Below, piece after piece: positions 42,583 through 60,708 of a DNA stretch of 64,000 nt. Position numbers and translations under genes: made by a program. This stretch comes from Candidatus Coproplasma sp. (GTDB lineage: Bacteria; Bacillota; Clostridia; Christensenellales; Borkfalkiaceae). The stretch is taken from contig JBJEVB010000008.1 of NCBI GenBank assembly GCA_051884155.1, positions 5,745 to 69,744 of the forward strand. The letters run 5' to 3'. The stretch's first letter is position 1. Every line of letters starts with the position of its first letter. The notes under the pieces are model-generated. The model had not been told where the DNA came from and made no database searches. It worked only from the letters and a program-made list of their open reading frames with translations.

Positions 42583-42603
42583 TCATTTATAGCAATAATT
42601 TTG

Positions 42604-42619
42604 CGCCCTGCACTTACGC
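42604..42619 (+). repeat. Left copy of the 16-bp direct repeat CGCCCTGCACTTACGC
   Basis: Identical to 55911-55926. Confidence 0.8.
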
Positions 42620-44133: not shown

Positions 44134-44142
44134 GTGAATATT

Positions 44143-44172
44143 CCCCGTACGGGGTGTTGTTCCCTGCAAGGG
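44143..44172 (+). promoter_or_regulatory. Double-hairpin motif, copy 1
   Basis: CCCCgtacGGGG-TGTTGTT-CCCTgcaAGGG. Near-identical copy at 53241-53270. Confidence 0.5.
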
Positions 44173-44195
44173 TGATTAAATACGAGGTGACGGAA

Positions 44196-44405: not shown

Positions 44406-44763
44406 AAGAGTACCTTATTACAGTCCTGATAGGAAAATTTATCCTATGACTAAAACAGATTACGTTAAGCGTGGAAGTCGTTGGGTAGAAGTAAACAAAG
44501 AAACAGAGCTTATATCTCTTAATCAAACAAAAATGGTGCTGAATAAGCAGGGTTTGCCTTTTGAACGTTCTCACCGTTTGGAAAAGCGTGATAAATACGG
44601 ACATTTTAAGCCTTACGATACTTTTTCTTCCATTTCCCCTGACGGTCAGAATAAAAGTACGTGGTACGTAGATTGGGTTAAGGGTGACGATAATTATCGT
44701 AGGTTGCAATACCAAAGTGTTGGAGCTAAACAGGCTTGGCGAAAAAGAAAAGGTAATAAGTAG
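44398..44763 (+). CDS. Hypothetical basic protein (island)
   Basis: 121 aa, Lys/Arg-rich. Its start overlaps the stop of the upstream ORF. Confidence 0.55.
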   Translation: MAKRVPYYSPDRKIYPMTKTDYVKRGSRWVEVNKETELISLNQTKMVLNKQGLPFERSHRLEKRDKYGHFKPYDTFSSISPDGQNKSTWYVDWVKGDDNYRRLQYQSVGAKQAWRKRKGNK

Positions 44764-44773
44764 GTAAAAAGCT

Positions 44774-45454
44774 ATGTCAAATTACGATTTAAACAGACAT
44801 AAAAAGGGTGATAAGGTCAAATGGGTTTTGACCTTAATTGTAGGAATATTGCTCGCTGCTGCTTGTGCGGCGGCATTGACAATGGGCATTAAAAATAACG
44901 GTTGGTTTAAGCCTACCGAAAACACGCCCGTTGAAGATACGGGTGGAATTACAGACCCTGATGATAATACAGGTGAAGATAATGGCGGTGGAATTACTGA
45001 CCCTGACGACAATACGGGCGAGGATAACGGCGGTGAGACAACTGACCCTGACGATAACACGGGTGAGGATAACGGCGGTGAAACAATCGTTACTGTTCTT
45101 CAAAGTGCAACTTTTGACGGTGCAGACGGTATTTCAAGTAATAGCTTTTTTACCGTAACGGGTAATCAGTCCACGGGTACTTATACAACGCCCGTTGGTG
45201 AGCTGACTAAGGCATTAAAGGTTGAAAGTTCTACTTCCATTGCGTTTACTACGGAAGTCACCACCACCGTTACGATTTATACAACTGAAACATATGTTGG
45301 TAAAACTATTAAGGTGGACGGAACGGCTTATACATTTGCCGCAGACGAGGACGGCTATATTGTAGCTAAGGCAGAGCTTGCGGCAGGCGCACACACAATT
45401 ACTAAGGGCGATACGGCGGTGTTTACATACTTAACGTTGACTACGGTTAAATAA
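44774..45454 (+). CDS. N-terminally membrane-anchored protein with acidic 15-aa repeats
   Basis: MSNYDLNRHKKGDKVKW followed by a TM span, then three copies of G(G/E)(I/T)TDPDDNTGEDNG. Confidence 0.65.
   Translation: MSNYDLNRHKKGDKVKWVLTLIVGILLAAACAAALTMGIKNNGWFKPTENTPVEDTGGITDPDDNTGEDNGGGITDPDDNTGEDNGGETTDPDDNTGEDNGGETIVTVLQSATFDGADGISSNSFFTVTGNQSTGTYTTPVGELTKALKVESSTSIAFTTEVTTTVTIYTTETYVGKTIKVDGTAYTFAADEDGYIVAKAELAAGAHTITKGDTAVFTYLTLTTVK
44942..45076 (+). repeat. 3 x 45-bp in-frame tandem repeat
   Basis: The copies differ mainly at synonymous positions. Confidence 0.8.
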
Positions 45455-45482
45455 AAAATAATAAAAAGGCGGGTAAAATTTT

Positions 45483-46535
45483 ATGTCAAATTACTATTTA
45501 AACAGGCACAAAAAGAGCGACAAGGTTAAGTGGTTTTTCACAGGCTTAGCGTTTTTCCTTGTCATTATAACGATTGTGGGAATGTGTTTACAGCTTTGGG
45601 GCAAAGGTAAGGTTAAGCCTTCCGAGTGGTTTAAGCACGAAGAAACCGAGCAGACTACCCCTACTACGCCCGAAAACGAGAATAGCGCAGTAGTAAGCGA
45701 CGGTGATAGCAACGGTATGTTGTTAGTTGCAAGCGCAATTCCCCTTAATTCTTATGAAGAATACGGCGTATCTGCTTTAGCGGAAAACGCGCAGTTGATA
45801 ACTGCAACCTTTACCCCTGAAGCTACTACTAACAAAAACGTTACTTGGTCTTGTAGTGATACAAGCGGTAAAGTAACTGTTACACCCGTGAGTGGTAATC
45901 CTTTGCAAGCAACTGTTGCTGTATCGGGTGCTTTTGGTACTCAGGTAACTATAACCTGTACCTCTCAGGCGAATTCCGCAATTAAAGCAACCTGCACTGT
46001 TGATTATGTGAAACATTATGCTTGGAACAGTGTACTTCTTTCGGATAATACTTCAATAAAAGACGAGTGGTCTGGTTATTTATATCCTTCTTTTGGTACG
46101 GGTACTTTAAGTCCTACGTCCTGCGTTGGTGAAGTATGGTTGTATTTAGACGGGAATTTATACACCTATCTTAAGGCTAATCATAGTACTGTTCAATCTT
46201 CAAAATGCCTTAATTCAAGTGCTGACGAAATGAATAACGAAGGTTCTTACTACATTAAAGACCTTTTCGGTACGACTAATGAAAGCGAGATTAACAGCAT
46301 TTACGCCGATATTGCTAAGTACTATTACGGTCAAGAAGACGTTGAAGTAGGAACGTTAACTTATGAAAATGTTCACTTCTATTATAACGGCATTGAAACG
46401 AGTTACGCCGACGGGGATAGTGTTGTTGAGACCACTTTAATTATAAATTCCTTCTCGGATATAAACGTTGCCCCTACAAGCCTTTCGCTTAGCGACGGCG
46501 GTTTAATCTTTGGGGCAAACGGCGCAATAGCTTAA
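45483..46535 (+). CDS. N-terminally membrane-anchored protein with Ig-like (Big_2-like) segment
   Basis: The anchor MSNYYLNRHKKSDKVKW+TM is paralogous to that of the previous gene. VTWSCSD...VTITCTSQ... is Ig-like. Confidence 0.65.
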   Translation: MSNYYLNRHKKSDKVKWFFTGLAFFLVIITIVGMCLQLWGKGKVKPSEWFKHEETEQTTPTTPENENSAVVSDGDSNGMLLVASAIPLNSYEEYGVSALAENAQLITATFTPEATTNKNVTWSCSDTSGKVTVTPVSGNPLQATVAVSGAFGTQVTITCTSQANSAIKATCTVDYVKHYAWNSVLLSDNTSIKDEWSGYLYPSFGTGTLSPTSCVGEVWLYLDGNLYTYLKANHSTVQSSKCLNSSADEMNNEGSYYIKDLFGTTNESEINSIYADIAKYYYGQEDVEVGTLTYENVHFYYNGIETSYADGDSVVETTLIINSFSDINVAPTSLSLSDGGLIFGANGAIA

Positions 46536-48592: not shown

Positions 48593-49057
48593 ATGGCACA
48601 TAAGAAAAATAGTTTTCATTGTAAATCTGAAAAACAAAGAAAGGCAATAGCGGCAAGTTATGCGAGAAGAGCGACGGAAAGTAAATCAGTTTCTTCTCCT
48701 TTTGAAATGCATTTAGCTAAGATACAGAACGATTATATGTTTACTTCAAATGAACCACTTGGCGTGCATACTTACGCTGTATATACCGAGAATAACGAAG
48801 TTCGTGCAATTCCGACTACTCATTTATATGTTCCTGATAAAGAAAGAATGGATAAGCTTCATAAAGGTTTATTGTGTAAGGTTAAGTTTGCTGGATATGA
48901 AACGCCGAGTGGCGTAGAAAATCGTTATTACAACACTAATGCACAGGGTGGTAAAATTGATTTACAAGATAAACGTGTGCAAATTGATAAATCGCCACTT
49001 CCGCAAAAGCAAGCACTTACGATAAAAGAATTTGCAAAATTCTCTCGTAAACGGTGA
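48593..49057 (+). CDS. Hypothetical protein, distant paralogue of 52097-52555
   Basis: 154 aa. Shares a [YC]AV..E.N....P block and its position with the 152-aa ORF. Confidence 0.6.
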   Translation: MAHKKNSFHCKSEKQRKAIAASYARRATESKSVSSPFEMHLAKIQNDYMFTSNEPLGVHTYAVYTENNEVRAIPTTHLYVPDKERMDKLHKGLLCKVKFAGYETPSGVENRYYNTNAQGGKIDLQDKRVQIDKSPLPQKQALTIKEFAKFSRKR

Positions 49058-49059
49058 TA

Positions 49060-49200
49060 AAAAAAGAAAGGTCGCAGGCATGTTACTTTAAGCTCCTGCG
49101 ACTGAAAGAATTATAAAATTGCTTTTCCGGTAATATAACGGCGGACGTGTACGCCCCTATTCAAATAGGAAGTCCGACAAACGGAAATCGTCGTTACTGT
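49060..49200 (-). ncRNA. Candidate small RNA 1 (- strand, ~140 nt)
   Basis: Lies downstream of the TTGACT-17-TATAAT promoter. Ends at the GTCGCAGG/CCTGCGAC hairpin followed by CUUUCUUUUUUU. Confidence 0.55.
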
Positions 49201-49205
49201 TTGCA

Positions 49206-49234
49206 ATTATAAGGGATATTTAATAAAAAGTCAA
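49206..49234 (-). promoter_or_regulatory. Consensus sigma70 promoter for sRNA 1
   Basis: TTGACT-17 nt-TATAAT on the - strand. Confidence 0.7.
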
Positions 49235-49257: not shown

Positions 49258-49278
49258 ATTGAAAATACACTTTCAAAA
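49258..49278 (+). promoter_or_regulatory. Palindromic motif ATTGAAAATACACTTTCAAAA, copy 1
   Basis: TTGAAA-6 nt-TTTCAA, 13 nt upstream of the ORF at 49291. Identical copies at 52943 and 55698. Confidence 0.5.
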
Positions 49279-49715: not shown

Positions 49716-49940
49716 ATGACTATTAATCAAATAATTATCTTAGTTGTTGCTGTCGTTATTATTGCTATTCTCGTGCCTGTTTTGATTGATATTATCAAGT
49801 CGGGCGTATTGCAAAGGTTTTTTGAACGAATTAGACGAATGCACGGTTTTAAAACGTTCAAGCGCATTATGTATGTACTTCTCGGTGTGTTGGTTGTGTT
49901 TGTTATAGGTTACTTTATTTATACGGCGGTGCAGTTGTGA
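49716..49940 (+). CDS. Small two-TM membrane protein
   Basis: 74 aa: two hydrophobic spans separated by a basic loop. Overlaps the next start. Confidence 0.6.
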   Translation: MTINQIIILVVAVVIIAILVPVLIDIIKSGVLQRFFERIRRMHGFKTFKRIMYVLLGVLVVFVIGYFIYTAVQL

Positions 49941-52093
49941 TGGAAAAGAAACGGTTTAATTATCGGTATATAATTTGCATACTTATCACTATAGGTTTTC
50001 TCGCCTGTGGCGTGTTTGTGTTTCCTAATGCTCTTGCCCGTTTGGTTGAGAGTGGTCGGGACTTTGGTTTATCCGTAGCATATTATTTTTGCGAGGTGTT
50101 CGGAATACCTCACGGTATTACGCCAACGGTCAACGATTTGCCGTCTATGCAAATAATACCGCCTATAGGTGGTAGTGCTACTACTACCTTGCCCGAAACG
50201 TGGGACGGTTTTAAATCTAATTGGGGTACATATTGGCAGTTGTGGGTGACAAAAGATAATTTTACGGGTTATTTGTCGTATGTTGGCAATTTACTCTTTA
50301 CACTTTGCAAGGTTATAATTATAGCCTTGCCGTTCGTACTTTTATTGTACATATGGTTAAGCCGTTACCTTAAAAATGAGAATAACGACTACGACAGGGA
50401 TAGCCGTCCGCTTTGTGCTTTTAAGTGGGTTACGGCGCATATATATACGCCTGTTAAAGCTTGGCTTATAGAGCTTTATTGCTTTATAAGAGAGCGTAAA
50501 GGCTATTGGGTAACGTGGCTCTGCTTGTGGCTTTTCTACTTCAATGTGTTCACTATAGTTATTGAGTTCTTTGCTTTCTATTTTTATTTCGTCGTTACGT
50601 TCGACGTGCTGAATATCTATCGGCAGGTGTACAAGCTTTTTTTAGACTTGTGGACGGTGTTAAACTTTGTGCCTATATGGCTGTGGGTGATTATCGGGCT
50701 AATAGTCTTTGACCATTGCCGTAAAAAGATTGCCTATTCACGGTTACACCATTTTGAAATGCGCAATCGTGGGTTTATCAATGCCCGACCTATCGTCTAT
50801 ATGGTGTGCGGTACAATGGGTAAGAAAAAGACAACCGCTATTACAGATATGGCGTTGTCGCAAGAGATAATGTTTAGGGATAAAGCTTTTGAAAAGCTGC
50901 TTGAGAACGATTTGAAGTTTCCCAACTTCCCTTGGATAAATCTTGAAAACGAGCTTAAACGGGCTATGGAATATCACGTTGTGTATAACCTTGCTACGGT
51001 TAAAATATGGGTGCATAAAAAGGCTTATCGTTGGAATAAGACACCAACCCGTAATAGGTTATTCAACTACGATTACGAGCGTTACGGGCTTACATATGAT
51101 GATAAATTAAAGGTCATAAACGTGTGGGAAGCGATAGAAACGTATGCACAACTTTACTTTATCTACGTTATTCAATCTTCCCTGTTAATTGCAAACTACT
51201 CTGTAAGAGTTGATAGTGTTCTTGCCGATTTAGGCAACTTCCCTATGTGGAATAGTGACTTTTTCAAAAGTGATAGCCGTCTTATAGACAGTTACAGTCG
51301 TCACGCCCATATTCTTGACTTTGACAGCCTACGCCTTGGGCGAAAGATTGTTGAGAATAACCGCAACGCAGACTGTTTTGAATTTGGCGTAATTGTGATT
51401 ACGGAAGTCGGCAAGGAACGTGGGAATAAGGTTGAGTTACAGGAAAAGAAAAAGCAAGATGATAGCACTAACCAAAAGAACGATTTATTTAACAGTTGGC
51501 TTAAAATGGTTCGTCACTCTGCAACGGTGGATAACTTCCCGTTTGTGCGTGTGATTACGGACGAGCAACGCCCTGCAAATTGGGGTGCAGACGCCCGTGA
51601 GCTGTGTGAGATTGTGCATATCCGTAACAGCGGTGAAATGTGTCTTGCTATGCCGTTTTTCTCGCTTGCGGAATTGCTGTACGGTTGGTTGTTCGGCAAG
51701 TTTGTTGGGTTGTATTACAAATACCGTTTTGTGCGTTCGGATAATACGTTGCCTATGTATCTGCTTAAAGCGTTTGCGGCAAAAGTACATCATTATTACA
51801 CGGGTATATATAATCGTTTTGGTTTTTGTACTCTCTCTGTGCAGATTGAAAGCGGAACGCAGGACGGACAGTTTGATGAAAATAAGTATTTCTTAATGTC
51901 GAAAAAGATTTACAGTAAACGTTTTTCAACGGACTGTTTTTCAGATTTCTTTATGGAAAAGGCGTTACGTTCATCTATCGGCATAGACGATTTACGGGAA
52001 TACGCAACTGAAAAAGCAACCTTTGATGAGTTGCAGTTGCAAAACAGTTACTTTATCAATGACCTGTTGAATGGTCTTTTAAATAATAATTAA
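49937..52093 (+). CDS. Polytopic membrane protein fused to a P-loop NTPase with Zot/pI-like motifs
   Basis: About 6 TM spans in the first 280 aa, then VCGTMGKKKTT, VIVITEVG and VRHS...VRVITDEQ. Confidence 0.7.
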   Translation: MMEKKRFNYRYIICILITIGFLACGVFVFPNALARLVESGRDFGLSVAYYFCEVFGIPHGITPTVNDLPSMQIIPPIGGSATTTLPETWDGFKSNWGTYWQLWVTKDNFTGYLSYVGNLLFTLCKVIIIALPFVLLLYIWLSRYLKNENNDYDRDSRPLCAFKWVTAHIYTPVKAWLIELYCFIRERKGYWVTWLCLWLFYFNVFTIVIEFFAFYFYFVVTFDVLNIYRQVYKLFLDLWTVLNFVPIWLWVIIGLIVFDHCRKKIAYSRLHHFEMRNRGFINARPIVYMVCGTMGKKKTTAITDMALSQEIMFRDKAFEKLLENDLKFPNFPWINLENELKRAMEYHVVYNLATVKIWVHKKAYRWNKTPTRNRLFNYDYERYGLTYDDKLKVINVWEAIETYAQLYFIYVIQSSLLIANYSVRVDSVLADLGNFPMWNSDFFKSDSRLIDSYSRHAHILDFDSLRLGRKIVENNRNADCFEFGVIVITEVGKERGNKVELQEKKKQDDSTNQKNDLFNSWLKMVRHSATVDNFPFVRVITDEQRPANWGADARELCEIVHIRNSGEMCLAMPFFSLAELLYGWLFGKFVGLYYKYRFVRSDNTLPMYLLKAFAAKVHHYYTGIYNRFGFCTLSVQIESGTQDGQFDENKYFLMSKKIYSKRFSTDCFSDFFMEKALRSSIGIDDLREYATEKATFDELQLQNSYFINDLLNGLLNNN

Positions 52094-52096
52094 GAG

Positions 52097-52555
52097 GTGA
52101 ATTTTATGTTTAAACACGGTAAGACGGGCGAAGTTTATTATTCCGTCCGTGAGAAGATTAATCACTATAAAAAGCGTATAGATGATAAGAGTTTAACTGT
52201 TGCACAGCGAGAATACGCAAAGCAACGTATTGGTGAGTTAACTTATTTAAATAATTTGTCTTATAAAGAGCCTGAACTCATTGTTACGGACGATAAGGTT
52301 TTTGGTAATGGAATAAGTAAACCACGTCTTTGTGCTGTTATTGATGAAGATAATTACGGTCGTTTATACGTTGCACCTATTATGGAACGTACTTCAAAGT
52401 CTATTATTCTTGATAATGACTATAGTCGTCAAATTGGTGATAAACGTAAATGGATAGACCGTAGTAATGTTTACGAAAACAAATATATTGACGGAGTTAA
52501 ACCTCTTACAACTAATGACAAATCAAAAATAAAAATAATTTTAAGAAAAAAATAA
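52097..52555 (+). CDS. Hypothetical protein, distant paralogue of 48593-49057
   Basis: 152 aa, the last ORF before the next sRNA-bearing spacer. Confidence 0.6.
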   Translation: MNFMFKHGKTGEVYYSVREKINHYKKRIDDKSLTVAQREYAKQRIGELTYLNNLSYKEPELIVTDDKVFGNGISKPRLCAVIDEDNYGRLYVAPIMERTSKSIILDNDYSRQIGDKRKWIDRSNVYENKYIDGVKPLTTNDKSKIKIILRKK

Positions 52556-52664
52556 CAACGACTTATTAGGTCGTTGTTTAATGGGATATTTCCCGTCCAC
52601 CGCTGAAGGAAGCGGTGCTTATTCGATAGACCACGCTATTTAATAGCGGAAAGTTACTATCACT
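52545..52664 (-). ncRNA. Candidate small RNA 2 (- strand, ~120 nt)
   Basis: Promoter TTGACT-17-TAAACT. Terminator AACAACGAC/GTCGTTGTT followed by AU7. Confidence 0.5.
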
Positions 52665-52670
52665 GTTATT

Positions 52671-52699
52671 AGTTTAAACAATTCTATGGTAAAAGTCAA
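52671..52699 (-). promoter_or_regulatory. Promoter for sRNA 2
   Basis: TTGACT-17 nt-TAAACT on the - strand. Confidence 0.6.
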
Positions 52700-52758: not shown

Positions 52759-52885
52759 TAAAAAAATAACGACGGCTTATTAGGTCGTCGTTGTTGTGGT
52801 CACTATGCCACCCACCGCTTAGAGGAAGCGGTGCTTACTTTGCGGGGCAGAACGTAGTTACTAACCGTTTACCTTCCGCATTTCG
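52759..52885 (-). ncRNA. Candidate small RNA 3 (- strand, ~125 nt)
   Basis: Promoter TTGACT-17-TAAAAT. Terminator AACGACG/CGTCGTT followed by AU7. Shares the CACCGCUUCC..AGCGGUG hairpin with sRNA 2. Confidence 0.5.
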
Positions 52886-52891
52886 TTTATT

Positions 52892-52920
52892 ATTTTAAGG
52901 CATTGTTTTGCAAAAGTCAA
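52892..52920 (-). promoter_or_regulatory. Promoter for sRNA 3
   Basis: TTGACT-17 nt-TAAAAT on the - strand. Confidence 0.65.
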
Positions 52921-52942: not shown

Positions 52943-52963
52943 ATTGAAAATACACTTTCAAAA
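52943..52963 (+). promoter_or_regulatory. Palindromic motif, copy 2
   Basis: Identical 21-mer, 14 nt upstream of the ORF at 52977. Confidence 0.5.
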
Positions 52964-53219: not shown

Positions 53220-53240
53220 ATTATCTTCTATTTGTTCTAT

Positions 53241-53270
53241 CCCCTTTAGGGGTGTTGCTCCCTGCAAGGG
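53241..53270 (+). promoter_or_regulatory. Double-hairpin motif, copy 2
   Basis: CCCCtttaGGGG-TGTTGCT-CCCTgcaAGGG, 24 nt upstream of the Rep start. Confidence 0.5.
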
Positions 53271-53293
53271 TGTTTAAAATGTGAGATATAAAG

Positions 53294-54491: not shown

Positions 54492-54551
54492 AGGCGACAC
54501 CTTGCACTGCCGAGCGCAGCTCGGCACTCGTTTTAGTGCAAGGTGTCGCCT
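54492..54551. other. Nested perfect hairpin (17-bp outer stem, 7-bp inner stem)
   Basis: AGGCGACACCTTGCACT...AGTGCAAGGTGTCGCCT encloses GCCGAGC-GCA-GCTCGGC. Confidence 0.7.
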
Positions 54552-54641: not shown

Positions 54642-55691
54642 ATGAAACGGAAAGGAACGAAAGATTTAACGCTGACACAACGGCGTTCTTTGGAAGATTT
54701 ACTAAAGGCAGGGGTGCATAAAAAACAAATAGCCAAACAGTTGGGCGTGTGTCTTGCAACTGTGTATAACGAAATTAAACGTGGCAGGTGTGAACAGCGT
54801 AAAAAGGTTTACGACGTGTACGGTGATGTCATAGGCTATAAAACGTATATAGTTTATAGTGCGGATATAGCGGAATATAACTACCGCTTTAATCAATCTT
54901 CGCACGGTGCGCCTTTAAAAATCGGCAATGATTATGGGCTTATACGGGAAATTGAAAATCGTGTTATAAACGATAAAATTTCTGCGTGTGCCGCATTGGG
55001 GCGTATCAAGCGTGAAAATGCTTGTCGTACAATTATTAGCAAAACTACGCTTTATAGGTACATACGTTCGGGATATATATTTACCCGTCTGACAATGCAG
55101 GACGTGAAAATCAAGCCTAAACATTATCAAAAGACAACCATTAAACGTGCGCCAAAAGGTACAAGCATTGAAAAACGCCCTGCCGAGATTGCAGAGCGTA
55201 ATTCGTTCGGTCATTGGGAAATGGACTGTGTATTAGGCAGGCAGGGTACTAAACCAACCATTTTAGCCTTTACGGAACGACTAACACGTTATGAGATTGT
55301 TTATAAAATGCCCGACCATAAGACTGCGACCGTCGTTCACTTTGTCAATAAGCTTGAAAAGCGTTACGGAAAGTTGTTCCGCAAGCTGTTTAAAAGTATA
55401 ACCGTTGATAACGGTGTTGAGTTTAGCGACTTTAACGGGCTTGAAAAGTCTATCTATGGCGGTAAGCGGACTAACGTCTATTACTGTCACCCTTATACTT
55501 CGTGCGAACGTGGTTCTAACGAGCGTTTAAACCGTGAAATACGCCGATTGATACCGAAAGGCACTGACCTATCTAATTATAGCGATAAGGACATTAAGGC
55601 GGTTGAAACATGGGTAAACGCATACCCTCGTGAAATCCTCGGGTATGCAACGAGTGCCGAACTTTTTAACGAGCAATTATCCGCAATATAA
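54642..55691 (+). CDS. IS30-family DDE transposase
   Basis: N-terminal HTH (KQIAKQLGVCLATVYNEIKRG). Catalytic triad in GHWEMD, TVDNGVEF and GSNERLN. Confidence 0.9.
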   Translation: MKRKGTKDLTLTQRRSLEDLLKAGVHKKQIAKQLGVCLATVYNEIKRGRCEQRKKVYDVYGDVIGYKTYIVYSADIAEYNYRFNQSSHGAPLKIGNDYGLIREIENRVINDKISACAALGRIKRENACRTIISKTTLYRYIRSGYIFTRLTMQDVKIKPKHYQKTTIKRAPKGTSIEKRPAEIAERNSFGHWEMDCVLGRQGTKPTILAFTERLTRYEIVYKMPDHKTATVVHFVNKLEKRYGKLFRKLFKSITVDNGVEFSDFNGLEKSIYGGKRTNVYYCHPYTSCERGSNERLNREIRRLIPKGTDLSNYSDKDIKAVETWVNAYPREILGYATSAELFNEQLSAI

Positions 55692-55697
55692 TATAAT

Positions 55698-55717
55698 TTG
55701 AAAATACACTTTCAAAA
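55698..55717 (+). promoter_or_regulatory. Palindromic motif, copy 3
   Basis: TTGAAAATACACTTTCAAAA, 7 nt after the transposase stop. Confidence 0.5.
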
Positions 55718-55910
55718 ACAATGCAAGCCGCCGAAAGACGGCTATTTTGTCGTACAACGTTATTGAGCTTAAACCGCTGTTCCGTCTGTCTTTGGCTAAA
55801 GACAGATGATTAAAACCCGTTGAAGTAATCTCTCCAACGGGTATTTTACTATACTCTAAAAAAATTTTTTGAAATCGTAAAAAAATTCTAAAAAAATACT
55901 TGACTTTTCA

Positions 55911-55926
55911 CGCCCTGCACTTACGC
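55911..55926 (+). repeat. Right copy of the 16-bp direct repeat
   Basis: Identical to 42604-42619. Confidence 0.8.
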
Positions 55927-59690: not shown

Positions 59691-60571
59691 TATTCTTTCT
59701 CCAAGGGGATAGGGCGTTTATCGCCTATAAATATTACGCCGAGCGTGCCGGGTCCGCAATGCGTGCCGATAACGGGACCTATTATCTGACGGACGATATT
59801 TGCGTCGGGGCGTTTTTCCTTGATGAGAGCTGCAAGCTCGTCGCCGTCGTCTTTGCAGTCCGCGTCTAAAACGTATACGGGATAAGCGGTATCGGTAAGC
59901 CCGTCTATGACCTTTTGAGCAAGCGAACGGATAGCCTTTCTCTTACCGGACGCCTTTTCAAACACGCTCAGTCCGCCCTTCTCGTTGACGGTTAAGATGG
60001 GCTTTATGCTGAGTATCGTACCTGCAACCGCCGATACGGCAGAGAGCCTGCCGCCCCTTTTTAAGTGCATTAAGTCGTCCACCGAGAAGTAAACGCAGAC
60101 CTTGTTGGTAAAGTCCTTTAAAAACTCTACTATTTCTTCGTCGGTCGCGCCCTGCTGTTTTTTCTCAGCCGCCGCAAGCATTTGAATACCTGCGCCGAGC
60201 GAGATAGACTTAGTGTCGAACACGGTGCATTTTCTTTCGGGGAACTGCTCTTTAAGCTCTACTAACGCAGCGTTAAGCTGATTGAAGGTGCCACTCATTG
60301 CGTGGGAAAAGCTGATATATAATACGTCTTCCCCCGCCTTGAAATAGGGCGTTAAAATATCCTTGTAGTTTTCGGGGTTCAACGCCATAGTTTTAGGCAC
60401 GTTGCCCGCCCTTACCGCCGAATAAAAAGCGGCAAAATCGGTGTGTTCGCCAAGGTCGTAGCTATACTCCTTATCGCAGTAGCAATAGGGCATGGATATG
60501 TAATCCATACCGAGCTCTTTAACCTTATCAAACCAGAGCTCGCCGTTGCTGTCGCATAATAAAATACTCAT
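59690..60571 (-). CDS. degV: DegV-family fatty-acid-binding protein
   Basis: SGTFNQ, HLKRGGRLS and IGPVIGTHCGPG blocks. Confidence 0.9.
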   Translation of the reverse strand: MSILLCDSNGELWFDKVKELGMDYISMPYCYCDKEYSYDLGEHTDFAAFYSAVRAGNVPKTMALNPENYKDILTPYFKAGEDVLYISFSHAMSGTFNQLNAALVELKEQFPERKCTVFDTKSISLGAGIQMLAAAEKKQQGATDEEIVEFLKDFTNKVCVYFSVDDLMHLKRGGRLSAVSAVAGTILSIKPILTVNEKGGLSVFEKASGKRKAIRSLAQKVIDGLTDTAYPVYVLDADCKDDGDELAALIKEKRPDANIVRQIIGPVIGTHCGPGTLGVIFIGDKRPIPLEKE

Positions 60572-60665
60572 ACTTTTTCTCTCTTAAAATACTCTTTTTT
60601 AACCAAGCCGAAAGGGCTTTGTTCAGTTAATTTTGCAGCTTACCCGATTATAAGAAAAATATGGT

Positions 60666-60708
60666 AAACCTATAGGTTTATGATATCATTTTAGCTAATA
60701 TATGTCAA
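60666..60708 (-). promoter_or_regulatory. degV-operon promoter with adjacent 14-bp palindrome
   Basis: TTGACA-17 nt-TATCAT on the - strand (60680-60708), directly followed by AAACCTATAGGTTT (60666-60679). Confidence 0.6.

Follow-up and report, generated by a model that had tools for sequence, protein, structure and literature searches.

Putative small RNA genes converging on family-matched protein genes in a plectrovirus/inovirus-like element of gut Clostridia

Background

What do promoters and terminators on the minus strand do in an island whose sizeable genes all run the other way? We addressed this question in a 64,000-nucleotide (nt) stretch of Candidatus Coproplasma sp. (assembly GCA_051884155.1, contig JBJEVB010000008.1, positions 5,745 to 69,744), hereafter referred to as the window, in which position 1 is the first letter. 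The window carries an integrated mobile element with a rolling-circle replication protein (Rep), and an earlier reading made from the sequence alone had proposed a family of three minus-strand small RNA (sRNA) genes within it. We found that the three units look like real sRNA genes of two classes, that comparable units recur in related elements, and that they converge on genes of matched protein families; a role as antisense counter-transcripts is tentatively favoured.

Three minus-strand units with the layout of small RNA genes

The three minus-strand promoters of the sequence-only reading were confirmed, all of them TTGACT with a 17-nt spacer, as were the hairpin-plus-U-tract terminators of the three units, named U1, U2 and U3:

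49206..49234, minus strand: U1 promoter, TTGACT-17-TATAAT, 11/12 consensus matches; this promoter type is kept in the homologs L222, L223 and L004.
49059..49199, minus strand: U1 RNA, class H, ~140 nt from the predicted 5' end; closing stem GUAACGaCG/CGcCGUUAU, internal domain and terminator.
49102-49071, minus strand: U1 terminator, stem GTCGCAGG/CCTGCGAC with the 16-nt loop AGCUUAAAGUAACAUG, followed by CUUUC and U7 (49065-49059).
52671..52699, minus strand: U2 promoter, TTGACT-17-TAAACT, 9/12 consensus matches.
52547..52664, minus strand: U2 RNA, class G, ~117 nt from the predicted 5' end; 5' three-way domain GUGAUAGUAAC..GGUCUAUC, hairpin CACCGCUUCCUUCAGCGGUG and a short variable hairpin.
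52578-52554, minus strand: U2 terminator, stem AACAACGAC/GTCGTTGTT, followed by AUUUUUUU; it reaches the stop codon of a 152-amino-acid (aa) gene.
52892..52920, minus strand: U3 promoter, TTGACT-17-TAAAAT, 10/12 consensus matches.
52760..52885, minus strand: U3 RNA, class G, ~125 nt from the predicted 5' end; 5' hairpin with AGUAAC in its loop, hairpin CACCGCUUCCUCUAAGCGGUG and a variable hairpin.
52792-52768, minus strand: U3 terminator, stem AACGACG/CGTCGTT, loop CCUAAUAAG, followed by AUUUUUUU (AU7).

All three promoters rank among the best of the 14-kb region in a consensus scan. The U2 terminator was listed by the scan, and those of U1 and U3 were read directly in the sequence. An automatic search for promoter-terminator pairs on the minus strand of the island returned 2 units against a mean of 0.28 in dinucleotide shuffles (8 of 200 shuffles reached 2); U1 was missed by this combined scan because 5 nt part its stem from the U-run. 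Promoter-like sites taken alone showed no enrichment (36 found, 32.7 expected), and the weight therefore rests on the pairing of promoter with terminator and on conservation in relatives. A strict promoter-plus-terminator scan also flagged a 285-nt minus-strand interval at 60424-60708, in the host flank outside the island.

As had been proposed, the units are non-coding: no credible open reading frame (ORF) was found in them, and the only frames, of 20-35 codons and without a Shine-Dalgarno (SD) sequence, were rejected. ARAGORN detected no tRNA in the units. An Rfam scan, suggested by the sequence-only reading, matched no family, with 0 matches in the window at the gathering threshold and noise only at E-values up to 10; on eight related loci it returned tRNAs only. 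The predicted fold of U2 was far more stable than that of its shuffles (-38.6 kcal/mol, z = -5.6), while U3 showed a moderate (z = -2.4) and U1 a weak (z = -1.5) effect.

The idea of one family of three did not hold. U2 and U3 share 70% identity and a common four-part layout, including the CACCGCUUCCU..AGCGGUG hairpin that had been noticed earlier, and judged by these similarities they are paralogs. U1 could not be aligned to either of them and belongs to another class with its own homologs; the common traits are the promoter type and the AGUAAC motif, which does lie near the 5' end of all three RNAs, as first described. At the DNA level, AGTAAC occurs on the minus strand at 49082, 49193, 52653 and 52857, and 4 of the 23 copies in the whole window (both strands) thus fall within the ~390 nt of the RNAs, a concentration that is clear, but the test is post hoc. 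Across RNA classes, GTAAC and TAAGC are shared more widely than any other 5-mer, with only a marginal excess over shuffles; together with AGTAAC they may represent a common recognition motif. Collectively, U1, U2 and U3 look like genuine sRNA genes with intrinsic terminators and housekeeping-sigma (sigma-70-type) promoters, from which they would be transcribed.

Conservation of the units in related elements

To examine conservation, we applied a strict scan (TTGACN, 16-18 nt, TAnnnT, and a perfect-stem terminator within 50-260 nt) to the window and to 80 Rep-related loci, comprising 1.26 Mb oriented by Rep. The scan gave 51 matches on the strand opposite Rep versus 19 on the Rep strand, and a minus-strand unit was present within 5 kb upstream of Rep in 39 of the 52 loci having at least 5 kb of upstream sequence. 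Unit positions form two clusters on the upstream side of Rep, at distances of 0-1 kb and 2-4 kb; the loci devoid of a unit were the most distant Rep relatives. A lack of such promoter-terminator pairs in related elements had been named in advance as a possible refutation; the pairs turned out to be conserved.

The promoter TTGACTTTT..TATAAT is conserved across units, and a linear -35/-10 arrangement with 17-nt spacing is kept in all RNA classes. Upstream of 41 units lies a palindrome (described below), and the distance from this palindrome to the -35 box is 23-25 nt in 37 of the 41. The RNA bodies fall into at least eight mutually unalignable classes, none of which matches Rfam. BLAST searches, together with a covariance model derived from U2, U3 and four homologs, detected class G units in L001, L002, L014 and L015, and more weakly in L035, L036 and L039. 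Of the loci that matched a pattern for the CACCGCUUCY..AGCGGUG hairpin, 7 viral ones and 80 of the 120 metagenome stretches were scanned, and all of these were chance matches according to the covariance model. Comparison of L212:594-690 with L211:3459-3575 revealed a natural deletion variant, a class G-like unit that has lost ~30 nt of the 5' domain and kept its promoter and terminator.

We also compared the DNA identity of the RNAs with that of the adjacent genes, and the RNA was often the better conserved (94 versus 71% for U3 in L220, 82 versus 67% in L015, and 93 versus 74% for U1 in L222). The units and their conservation across relatives are solid, and on these comparisons the sRNA genes appear to be an undescribed, fast-diversifying set across a large element family in gut Clostridia and Christensenellales.

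RNA genes converge on genes of matched protein families

The most informative feature of the units is their pairing with convergent protein genes, here termed cassette genes, and an RNA gene converging on a family-matched basic protein gene has not been described before. Nearly all units run into the final gene of a plus-strand operon, whose product is a basic protein of 110-170 aa with no recognised fold and whose stop codon adjoins or overlaps the RNA terminator. The window contains two cassette genes:

48593..49057, plus strand: 154-aa gene, paired with U1; basic product, closing the structural operon; stop codon immediately beside the end of the U1 U-tract.
52097..52555, plus strand: 152-aa gene (149 aa from the ATG at 52106), paired with U2 (and U3); basic product, last gene of the operon of a 718-aa protein.

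In these cassettes the U-tract and terminator meet or overlap the last codons of the protein gene. The C-terminal KK of the 152-aa protein is encoded by an A-run complementary to the U2 U-tract, and the terminal lysines of cassette proteins generally correspond to such an A-run. Across the related elements, 64 candidate units have an ORF ending within ~45 nt of the RNA 3' end, including every unit assigned to an RNA class (ORFs of 110-231 aa). Proteins and RNAs were clustered independently, and the two partitions match without exception among classified units:

Protein family MFKHGKTG..: RNA class G.
Family of the window's 154-aa protein: RNA class H.
Protein family ..ERPVVVIETN..: RNA class B.
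Protein family ..VGKIGYCDNK..: RNA classes A and E.

Homologs of the window proteins gave the same picture, as a terminator or a complete minus-strand unit follows right after the stop codon in 14 of 14 contigs for the 152-aa protein and in 5 of 5 loci for the 154-aa protein; the unit is interrupted by the contig end in two contigs, one of them among the 14. A given cassette family may stand in front of the morphogenesis block in one element and in front of the Rep block in another. The tandem U2 and U3 units look like the result of a cassette replacement, in which an incoming protein gene would have brought U2 along and the resident U3 would have stayed. The 152-aa protein and U2 resemble the L208 type. 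U3 shares 94% identity with the only unit of L220, a locus whose Rep (P0002) matches the window Rep at 83% identity.

The cassette proteins are basic, carry Lys/Arg-rich tails and have no membrane segment. Neither window protein matched Pfam, NCBIfam, PHROG or PADLOC. AlphaFold2 (AF2) models of both were confident (pLDDT of 92 for the 152-aa and 81 for the 154-aa protein), beta-rich and globular, and have in common a C-terminal helix and a core made up of a beta-strand, a short helix and a long beta-hairpin. Foldseek searches against the PDB yielded no significant match for either protein (best E-values of 0.56 and 0.31), and a search against BFVD yielded none for the 152-aa protein. The 154-aa family comprises 111 representative clusters among 1.8 billion, and its distant members contain no known domain.

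One other cassette family produced sub-threshold PemK/MazF matches (E-values of 7e-4 and 2e-3, below the Pfam cut-off), and hhalign relates this family to a second one (probability 86%). A MazF/PemK-like identity of the cassette proteins, suggested by a motif seen by eye, was rejected after PDB sequence profiles gave no match and Foldseek gave no support for the window proteins; since the remaining support is sub-threshold and concerns one family only, we do not call the cassette proteins MazF-like. Regarding a single superfamily for all cassette proteins, hhalign backs a relation of families A8 and A6 only (probability 86%), with A5-A6, A5-A9 and A9-A6 unsupported and links to the window's families weak or absent.

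RNA structure and covariation

Nine class G units were aligned under guidance of the model; 94% of the cells in this alignment are paired, and at four pairs both sides have changed. The covariation score was 0.206, compared with 0.093 in column shuffles (0 of 500 reached 0.206), and slid controls were all lower. This covariation lies mostly in the terminator; the CACCGC..GCGGUG hairpin hardly varies. MAFFT or the model realigned the third hairpin and the 5' domain poorly, and both were read directly instead: the third hairpin pairs through different sequences (GUGG..CCAC, GCGG..CCGC, GGGA..UCCC, GAGG..CCUC and UGGAA..UUCCA), and the inner 5' hairpin occurs as CGCUA..UAGCG or ACUA..UAGU. The RNAalifold prediction for class H, made from three sequences (U1, L222 and L004), contains the terminator as well as a long closing stem, and seven of its pairs carry compensatory changes. 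L224 and L225 have yet another version of the terminator stem around an unchanged 16-nt loop AGCUUAAAGUAACAUG. Over 49 non-identical units, the RNA sense was more stable than its complement in 34 (Wilcoxon p = 0.007), with 113 versus 78 G-U pairs.

A conserved palindrome marks operon boundaries without plus-strand terminators

The palindrome that accompanies the units is found three times in the window:

49259..49276: 18-bp palindrome TTGAAAATACACTTTCAA, 24 nt from the U1 -35 box, immediately preceding the SD and ATG (49291) of the next operon.
52944..52961: 18-bp palindrome TTGAAAATACACTTTCAA, 23 nt from the U3 -35 box, directly upstream of the SD and ATG (52977) of an 80-aa ORF and the Rep block.
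55698-55715: 18-bp palindrome after the transposase stop codon.

Each of the three promoters had been thought to stand back-to-back with this palindrome, which is true of U1 and U3 and fails for U2, whose promoter abuts the U3 terminator and has no palindrome beside it. The consensus TTGAAA-RTRYAC-TTTCAA occurs in 118 copies in loci L001-L080 plus the window, with up to 6 per element, usually directly before the SD/ATG of the first gene of a plus-strand block or directly after a stop codon. No protein of these elements comes near the palindrome in conservation; an operator, an RNA hairpin and a transposase site are all possible identities for it. We detected no convincing sigma-70-type plus-strand promoter beside it, either by eye or by scan.

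The scan placed plus-strand terminator-like sites behind Rep (54508) and behind the transposase gene (55726). It found no plus-strand intrinsic terminator where the structural and morphogenesis operons end, and the only hairpin-plus-U-tract there is on the minus strand; the plus-strand sequence after the hairpins reads TGAAAGAA (U1), TTTAATGG (U2) and GTTGTGG (U3). As these upstream operons have no terminator of their own, their plus-strand transcripts must run into the sRNA gene, where they would be perfectly complementary to the sRNA, and the earlier suggestion that the RNAs are antisense to plus-strand read-through is therefore plausible. The further suggestion of a counter-transcript like those controlling Rep in rolling-circle plasmids was not borne out: the units lie outside the Rep leader and diverge from it, and no plus-strand attenuator was found before the next start codon. 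U1 adjoins the morphogenesis block rather than Rep, and the U3 promoter lies upstream of the SD of the 80-aa/Rep block and points away from it.

Possible functions of the RNAs

Among the possible functions, we give somewhat less than an even chance (roughly 0.45) to the sRNA being a cis-antisense counter-transcript that acts on the 3' end of the cassette gene mRNA and on read-through into the next operon. Plus-strand operon transcripts would extend past the cassette gene into the sRNA gene, and the strongly expressed, structured sRNA would pair with the complementary 3'/intercistronic plus-strand RNA, with pairing probably starting at the terminator loops. As an outcome, the cassette protein mRNA would be controlled and read-through would be limited into the morphogenesis block (at U1) and then the Rep block. 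Because no plus-strand terminator precedes the unit, complementarity to the 3' part of the cassette mRNA is expected. Such a mechanism would resemble that of the 3'-overlapping antisense RNAs of Gram-positive type I toxin-antitoxin systems and of operon-insulating counter-transcripts, and precedents on Gram-positive mobile elements include par RNA II (PMC7472228) and SR6/yonT (PMC5848175). We infer the transcription, the pairing and its consequence alike.

Several observations weigh against a cis-antisense role. The transcript ends and the plus-strand read-through are predictions from sequence. The RNA is more conserved than the neighbouring gene, which fits cis-antisense poorly, and non-coding loops are conserved as well (AAUAAG in class G terminators and the 16-nt loop in class H); neither feature is needed for perfect cis-complementarity, and both would therefore point to a sequence-specific partner and favour the RNA-protein alternative considered next. 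The cassette proteins are not small hydrophobic peptides, and their toxicity is without support. The units show no second complementarity to the cassette gene start, and the longest trans complementarity of the sRNAs within the island plus strand is 10-11 nt, a length reached by 58-131 of 200 shuffles, with none beyond chance. The match of protein family with RNA class could be mere physical linkage. In classes G and H, the window's own, the plus-strand complement folds equally well or better, and the assignment of the functional strand of the window units therefore rests on the polarity of promoter and terminator.

An RNA-protein partner cassette, in which the sRNA binds the convergent basic protein as a type III-like antitoxin/toxin pair or as another ribonucleoprotein and forms a stabilising, immunity or incompatibility module, is the main rival, though we consider it unlikely. 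It would account for the agreement of protein family and RNA class without exception among classified units, for the loops kept while stems covary, and for RNAs that outconserve the adjacent gene; the Lys/Arg-rich tails of the basic proteins, the weak sub-threshold PemK/MazF matches of one cassette family and the partial relatedness of cassette families (A8 versus A6, hhalign 86%) point the same way, and the U2/U3 layout in the window resembles a protein gene that arrived with its own RNA while the resident RNA was left. However, neither window protein, each with a confident AF2 model, shows a MazF/ToxN-like or other significant structural match, PADLOC and Pfam give none either, and the RNA is not a ToxIN-type tandem-repeat array upstream of a toxin. 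The fixed syntenic position in nearly every element is core-gene-like and unlike that of accessory toxin-antitoxin modules, and the co-occurrence of protein and RNA types possibly reflects linkage alone. A more specific proposal, which we regard as fairly unlikely, is a new kind of RNA-protein module in which a non-repetitive convergent RNA and a protein of new fold would act as an immunity, incompatibility or addiction determinant of a large and so far unrecognised family of filamentous-phage-like elements, with rapid switching among its more than eight unrelated types setting which elements co-exist in, or superinfect, a single gut bacterium.

Transcription could also matter more than its product, if strong convergent transcription itself blocks polymerase read-out or occludes a plus-strand promoter or operator at the palindrome. 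The near-consensus promoters at a fixed distance from the palindrome, the location of the units exactly at operon boundaries without plus-strand terminators and the two tandem units before the window's Rep block are all consistent with such insulation, but interference alone would select neither for the conserved RNA architecture with compensatory changes in non-terminator helices nor for RNA conservation above that of the neighbouring gene, and we consider it quite improbable. We attach a very low probability to the proposal, made by the sequence-only reading, that the RNAs prime complementary-strand synthesis, such that the units would be minus-strand origins converting plus single-stranded DNA (ssDNA) to the double-stranded form. 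Their polarity does suit a plus-strand ssDNA genome with an ORF2/G2P-type rolling-circle Rep and is in itself compatible with priming, unrelated structured types at one position recall the cassette-like single-strand origin (sso) types of rolling-circle plasmids, and, as ssDNA, the U2/U3 spacer has a strongly folding plus strand (z = -6.4). Against priming, the -35/-10 boxes lie outside any defined hairpin in ssDNA folds and have no nearby inverted copy, and as they stand on one strand at 17-nt spacing they need duplex DNA; moreover, the RNAs are 75-140 nt long with intrinsic terminators instead of short primers, the link to a specific protein family is left unexplained, and ssDNA packaging by the element is itself only inferential. 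Folding of the plus strand into an sso-like ssDNA promoter was considered separately and is unsupported by the folds. Least probable of all would be a lack of function, with the units being chance promoter and terminator look-alikes or only 3' untranslated region (UTR) hairpins of plus-strand genes. Although promoter-like hexamer pairs are not enriched in the region and the complement of the window's classes folds no worse than the RNA, promoter, spacing, terminator polarity and position are kept across dozens of elements whose Reps are only 50-65% identical, and the strand asymmetry (51 versus 19) speaks against chance.

Comparison with known systems

The par(pAD1) RNA II/Fst system of Enterococcus likewise belongs to a Gram-positive mobile element, and there too a small structured RNA meets the coding transcript at a terminator stem-loop, the loop of which is the site of initial contact between par RNA II and its target (PMC7472228). 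The promoters of par are convergent. YUNR-like tetranucleotides (CUAA, CUUA and CUGA) are present in the terminator loops of our units, which could start pairing. In contrast to par, the sRNA promoter here converges on a cassette gene without a promoter of its own and last in a long operon, the terminator is one-directional instead of shared and bidirectional, having no U-tract on the plus strand, and there is no direct-repeat second pairing site over the SD or start codon. The partners also differ, as par encodes a 33-aa membrane peptide and an RNA of ~40 nt, whereas the present cassettes encode a basic soluble protein of 110-170 aa and an RNA of 75-140 nt. Type I toxins are by criterion hydrophobic membrane peptides of <60 aa, unlike the basic, membrane-segment-free partners found here.

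Another comparable system is SR6/yonT, with the related pairs RatA/txpA and SR4/bsrG also known from B. subtilis prophages. SR6 is a 3'-overlapping antisense RNA on prophage SPbeta, a ~100-nt RNA over the gene 3' end that lies between this gene and the next gene of a polycistronic transcript (PMC5848175). The toxins of this group are again <60 aa, while the coding overlap in our units is limited to the last few codons, and the present cassette recurs at two fixed positions across an element family.

Like the counter-transcripts of rolling-circle and theta plasmids, our units would be stem-loop-rich antisense RNAs of small size and strong expression on a Rep replicon, and different types would permit different elements to co-exist. 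The RNA I/II of pT181, RNA II of pMV158 and RNA III of pIP501 are encoded within the leader of the rep mRNA, where they cause attenuation or block the start of rep, whereas the present units lie upstream of the Rep block start and diverge from it, with no attenuator before the next start codon. Single-strand origins (ssoA, ssoU, ssoT and ssoW) and the M13 minus-strand origin make a short primer from folded ssDNA; they too are strand-specific, structured, non-coding cassettes of several unrelated types near the replication module, with an RNA of minus polarity. The present units differ in their canonical duplex promoter, ~100-nt RNA and intrinsic terminator, and a single-strand origin is by definition active only when single-stranded (PMC4595007).

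Type III toxin-antitoxin systems also pair a protein specifically with a non-coding RNA, with different cognate RNAs for different families. In ToxIN, CptIN and TenpIN, a tandem-repeat RNA is located upstream of the toxin in the same orientation; our units are single, structured and on the opposite strand, U2 and U3 are two complete genes with their own promoters, and Foldseek gave no ToxN/MazF-like fold for the window cassette proteins. In the main text of an inovirus survey the word 'non-coding' is absent, and its toxin-antitoxin pairs are all protein-protein systems, of type II or type IV (PMC6813254).

Small antisense RNAs on mobile elements are thus a known kind; what is new is their regular presence in a Tubulavirales-like family, the convergent coupling to a family-matched basic protein gene and the fixed palindrome spacing. 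In the literature that we found, non-coding RNA genes have apparently not been reported before as a regular component of filamentous-phage-like elements; the present ones, if expressed, would be the first, and would serve as markers of an uncatalogued element family that is widespread in the gut Clostridia of humans and animals. The layout of basic protein gene, convergent sRNA gene, promoter and palindrome is a compact, readily testable module that could explain how operons are separated in one-strand genomes lacking terminators, and how Rep is kept silent in the integrated state; alternatively, it could represent a new RNA-protein addiction or immunity system. Further results are a conserved operator-like palindrome, at least eight structured RNA classes that are new, and two new protein families, for which folds were predicted with confidence and structural relatives are lacking.

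The carrier element and its neighbouring features

The element that carries the units has the following extent:

~42.6-55.9 kb, plus strand for all sizeable ORFs: island of ~13.3 kb with low GC (37-42% versus 45-50% in the flanks).

Direct repeats TTT(TG/CA)CGCCCTGCACTTACGC of 21 nt at 42599-42619 and 55906-55926, spaced 13,307 bp apart, bracket the island and are candidate attachment or target-duplication sites, which puts the element size at ~13.3 kb. The island encodes a rolling-circle Rep of the ORF2/G2P family (PF23343, E-value of 3e-11, above the Pfam cut-off), an IS30-family transposase (54642-55691; NF033563, E-value of 2e-64), a SprT-like protein, small ORFs and several N-terminally anchored surface-type proteins with CBM77 or Big_2-like domains. 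The 718-aa protein (49937-52093), preceded by small ORFs, has a P-loop GTMGKKKT and a hydrophobic N-terminal third; searches of Pfam, PHROGs, NCBIfam, PADLOC and PDB sequences found no relative, part of the metagenomic record MT835493 shares 51% identity with it, and we presume it to be a morphogenesis ATPase.

The gene set is closest to Tubulavirales, above all to plectrovirus-like elements, and the carrier is best described as an integrated plectrovirus/inovirus-like element. It shares with integrated elements of Plectroviridae and Tubulavirales the ORF2/G2P Rep, a transposase, genes on one strand, small membrane proteins and a P-loop protein (PMC8295915; PMC6813254), and plectrovirus-like elements replicate by rolling circle or by transposition (PMC8295915). 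By extension, this element may produce ssDNA virions. It differs from known Tubulavirales in that the hosts are walled gut Clostridia and that a 13-kb element holds both a Rep and an IS30-family transposase. More than 1,500 Rep relatives were identified in the protein collection, and 282 Rep-encoding stretches in species-representative genomes, nearly all metagenome-assembled genomes of gut Clostridia/Christensenellales. A scan of IMG/VR with the Rep alignment found no relative, and the GenBank phage set contained one, an unannotated metagenomic record.

The transposase gene is preceded by the ribosome-binding-site context GAAAAGGACGGTTA, as in operon-first genes, and directly followed by a palindrome; the transposase looks more like the element's own integrase than like an inserted insertion sequence. 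The interval separating Rep from the transposase gene holds a plus-strand terminator-like hairpin, flanked on both sides by a perfect inverted repeat of 17 nt, AGGCGACACCTTGCACT (54492-54508 / 54535-54551). A 39-nt double-hairpin, TCCCCnnnnGGGGTGTTGnTCCCTGCAAGGGTG, occurs twice with 87% identity, at the head of the structural block (44142-44180) and just upstream of Rep (53240-53278), and is a candidate plus-strand origin or 5' UTR element. Among the surface proteins, the 5' ends of two adjacent genes are duplicated (44744-44832 / 45453-45541; MSNY.LNRHKK..KVKW), and the CBM77-domain protein contains three tandem 45-nt repeats (44942-45076) encoding GGITDPDDNTGEDN.

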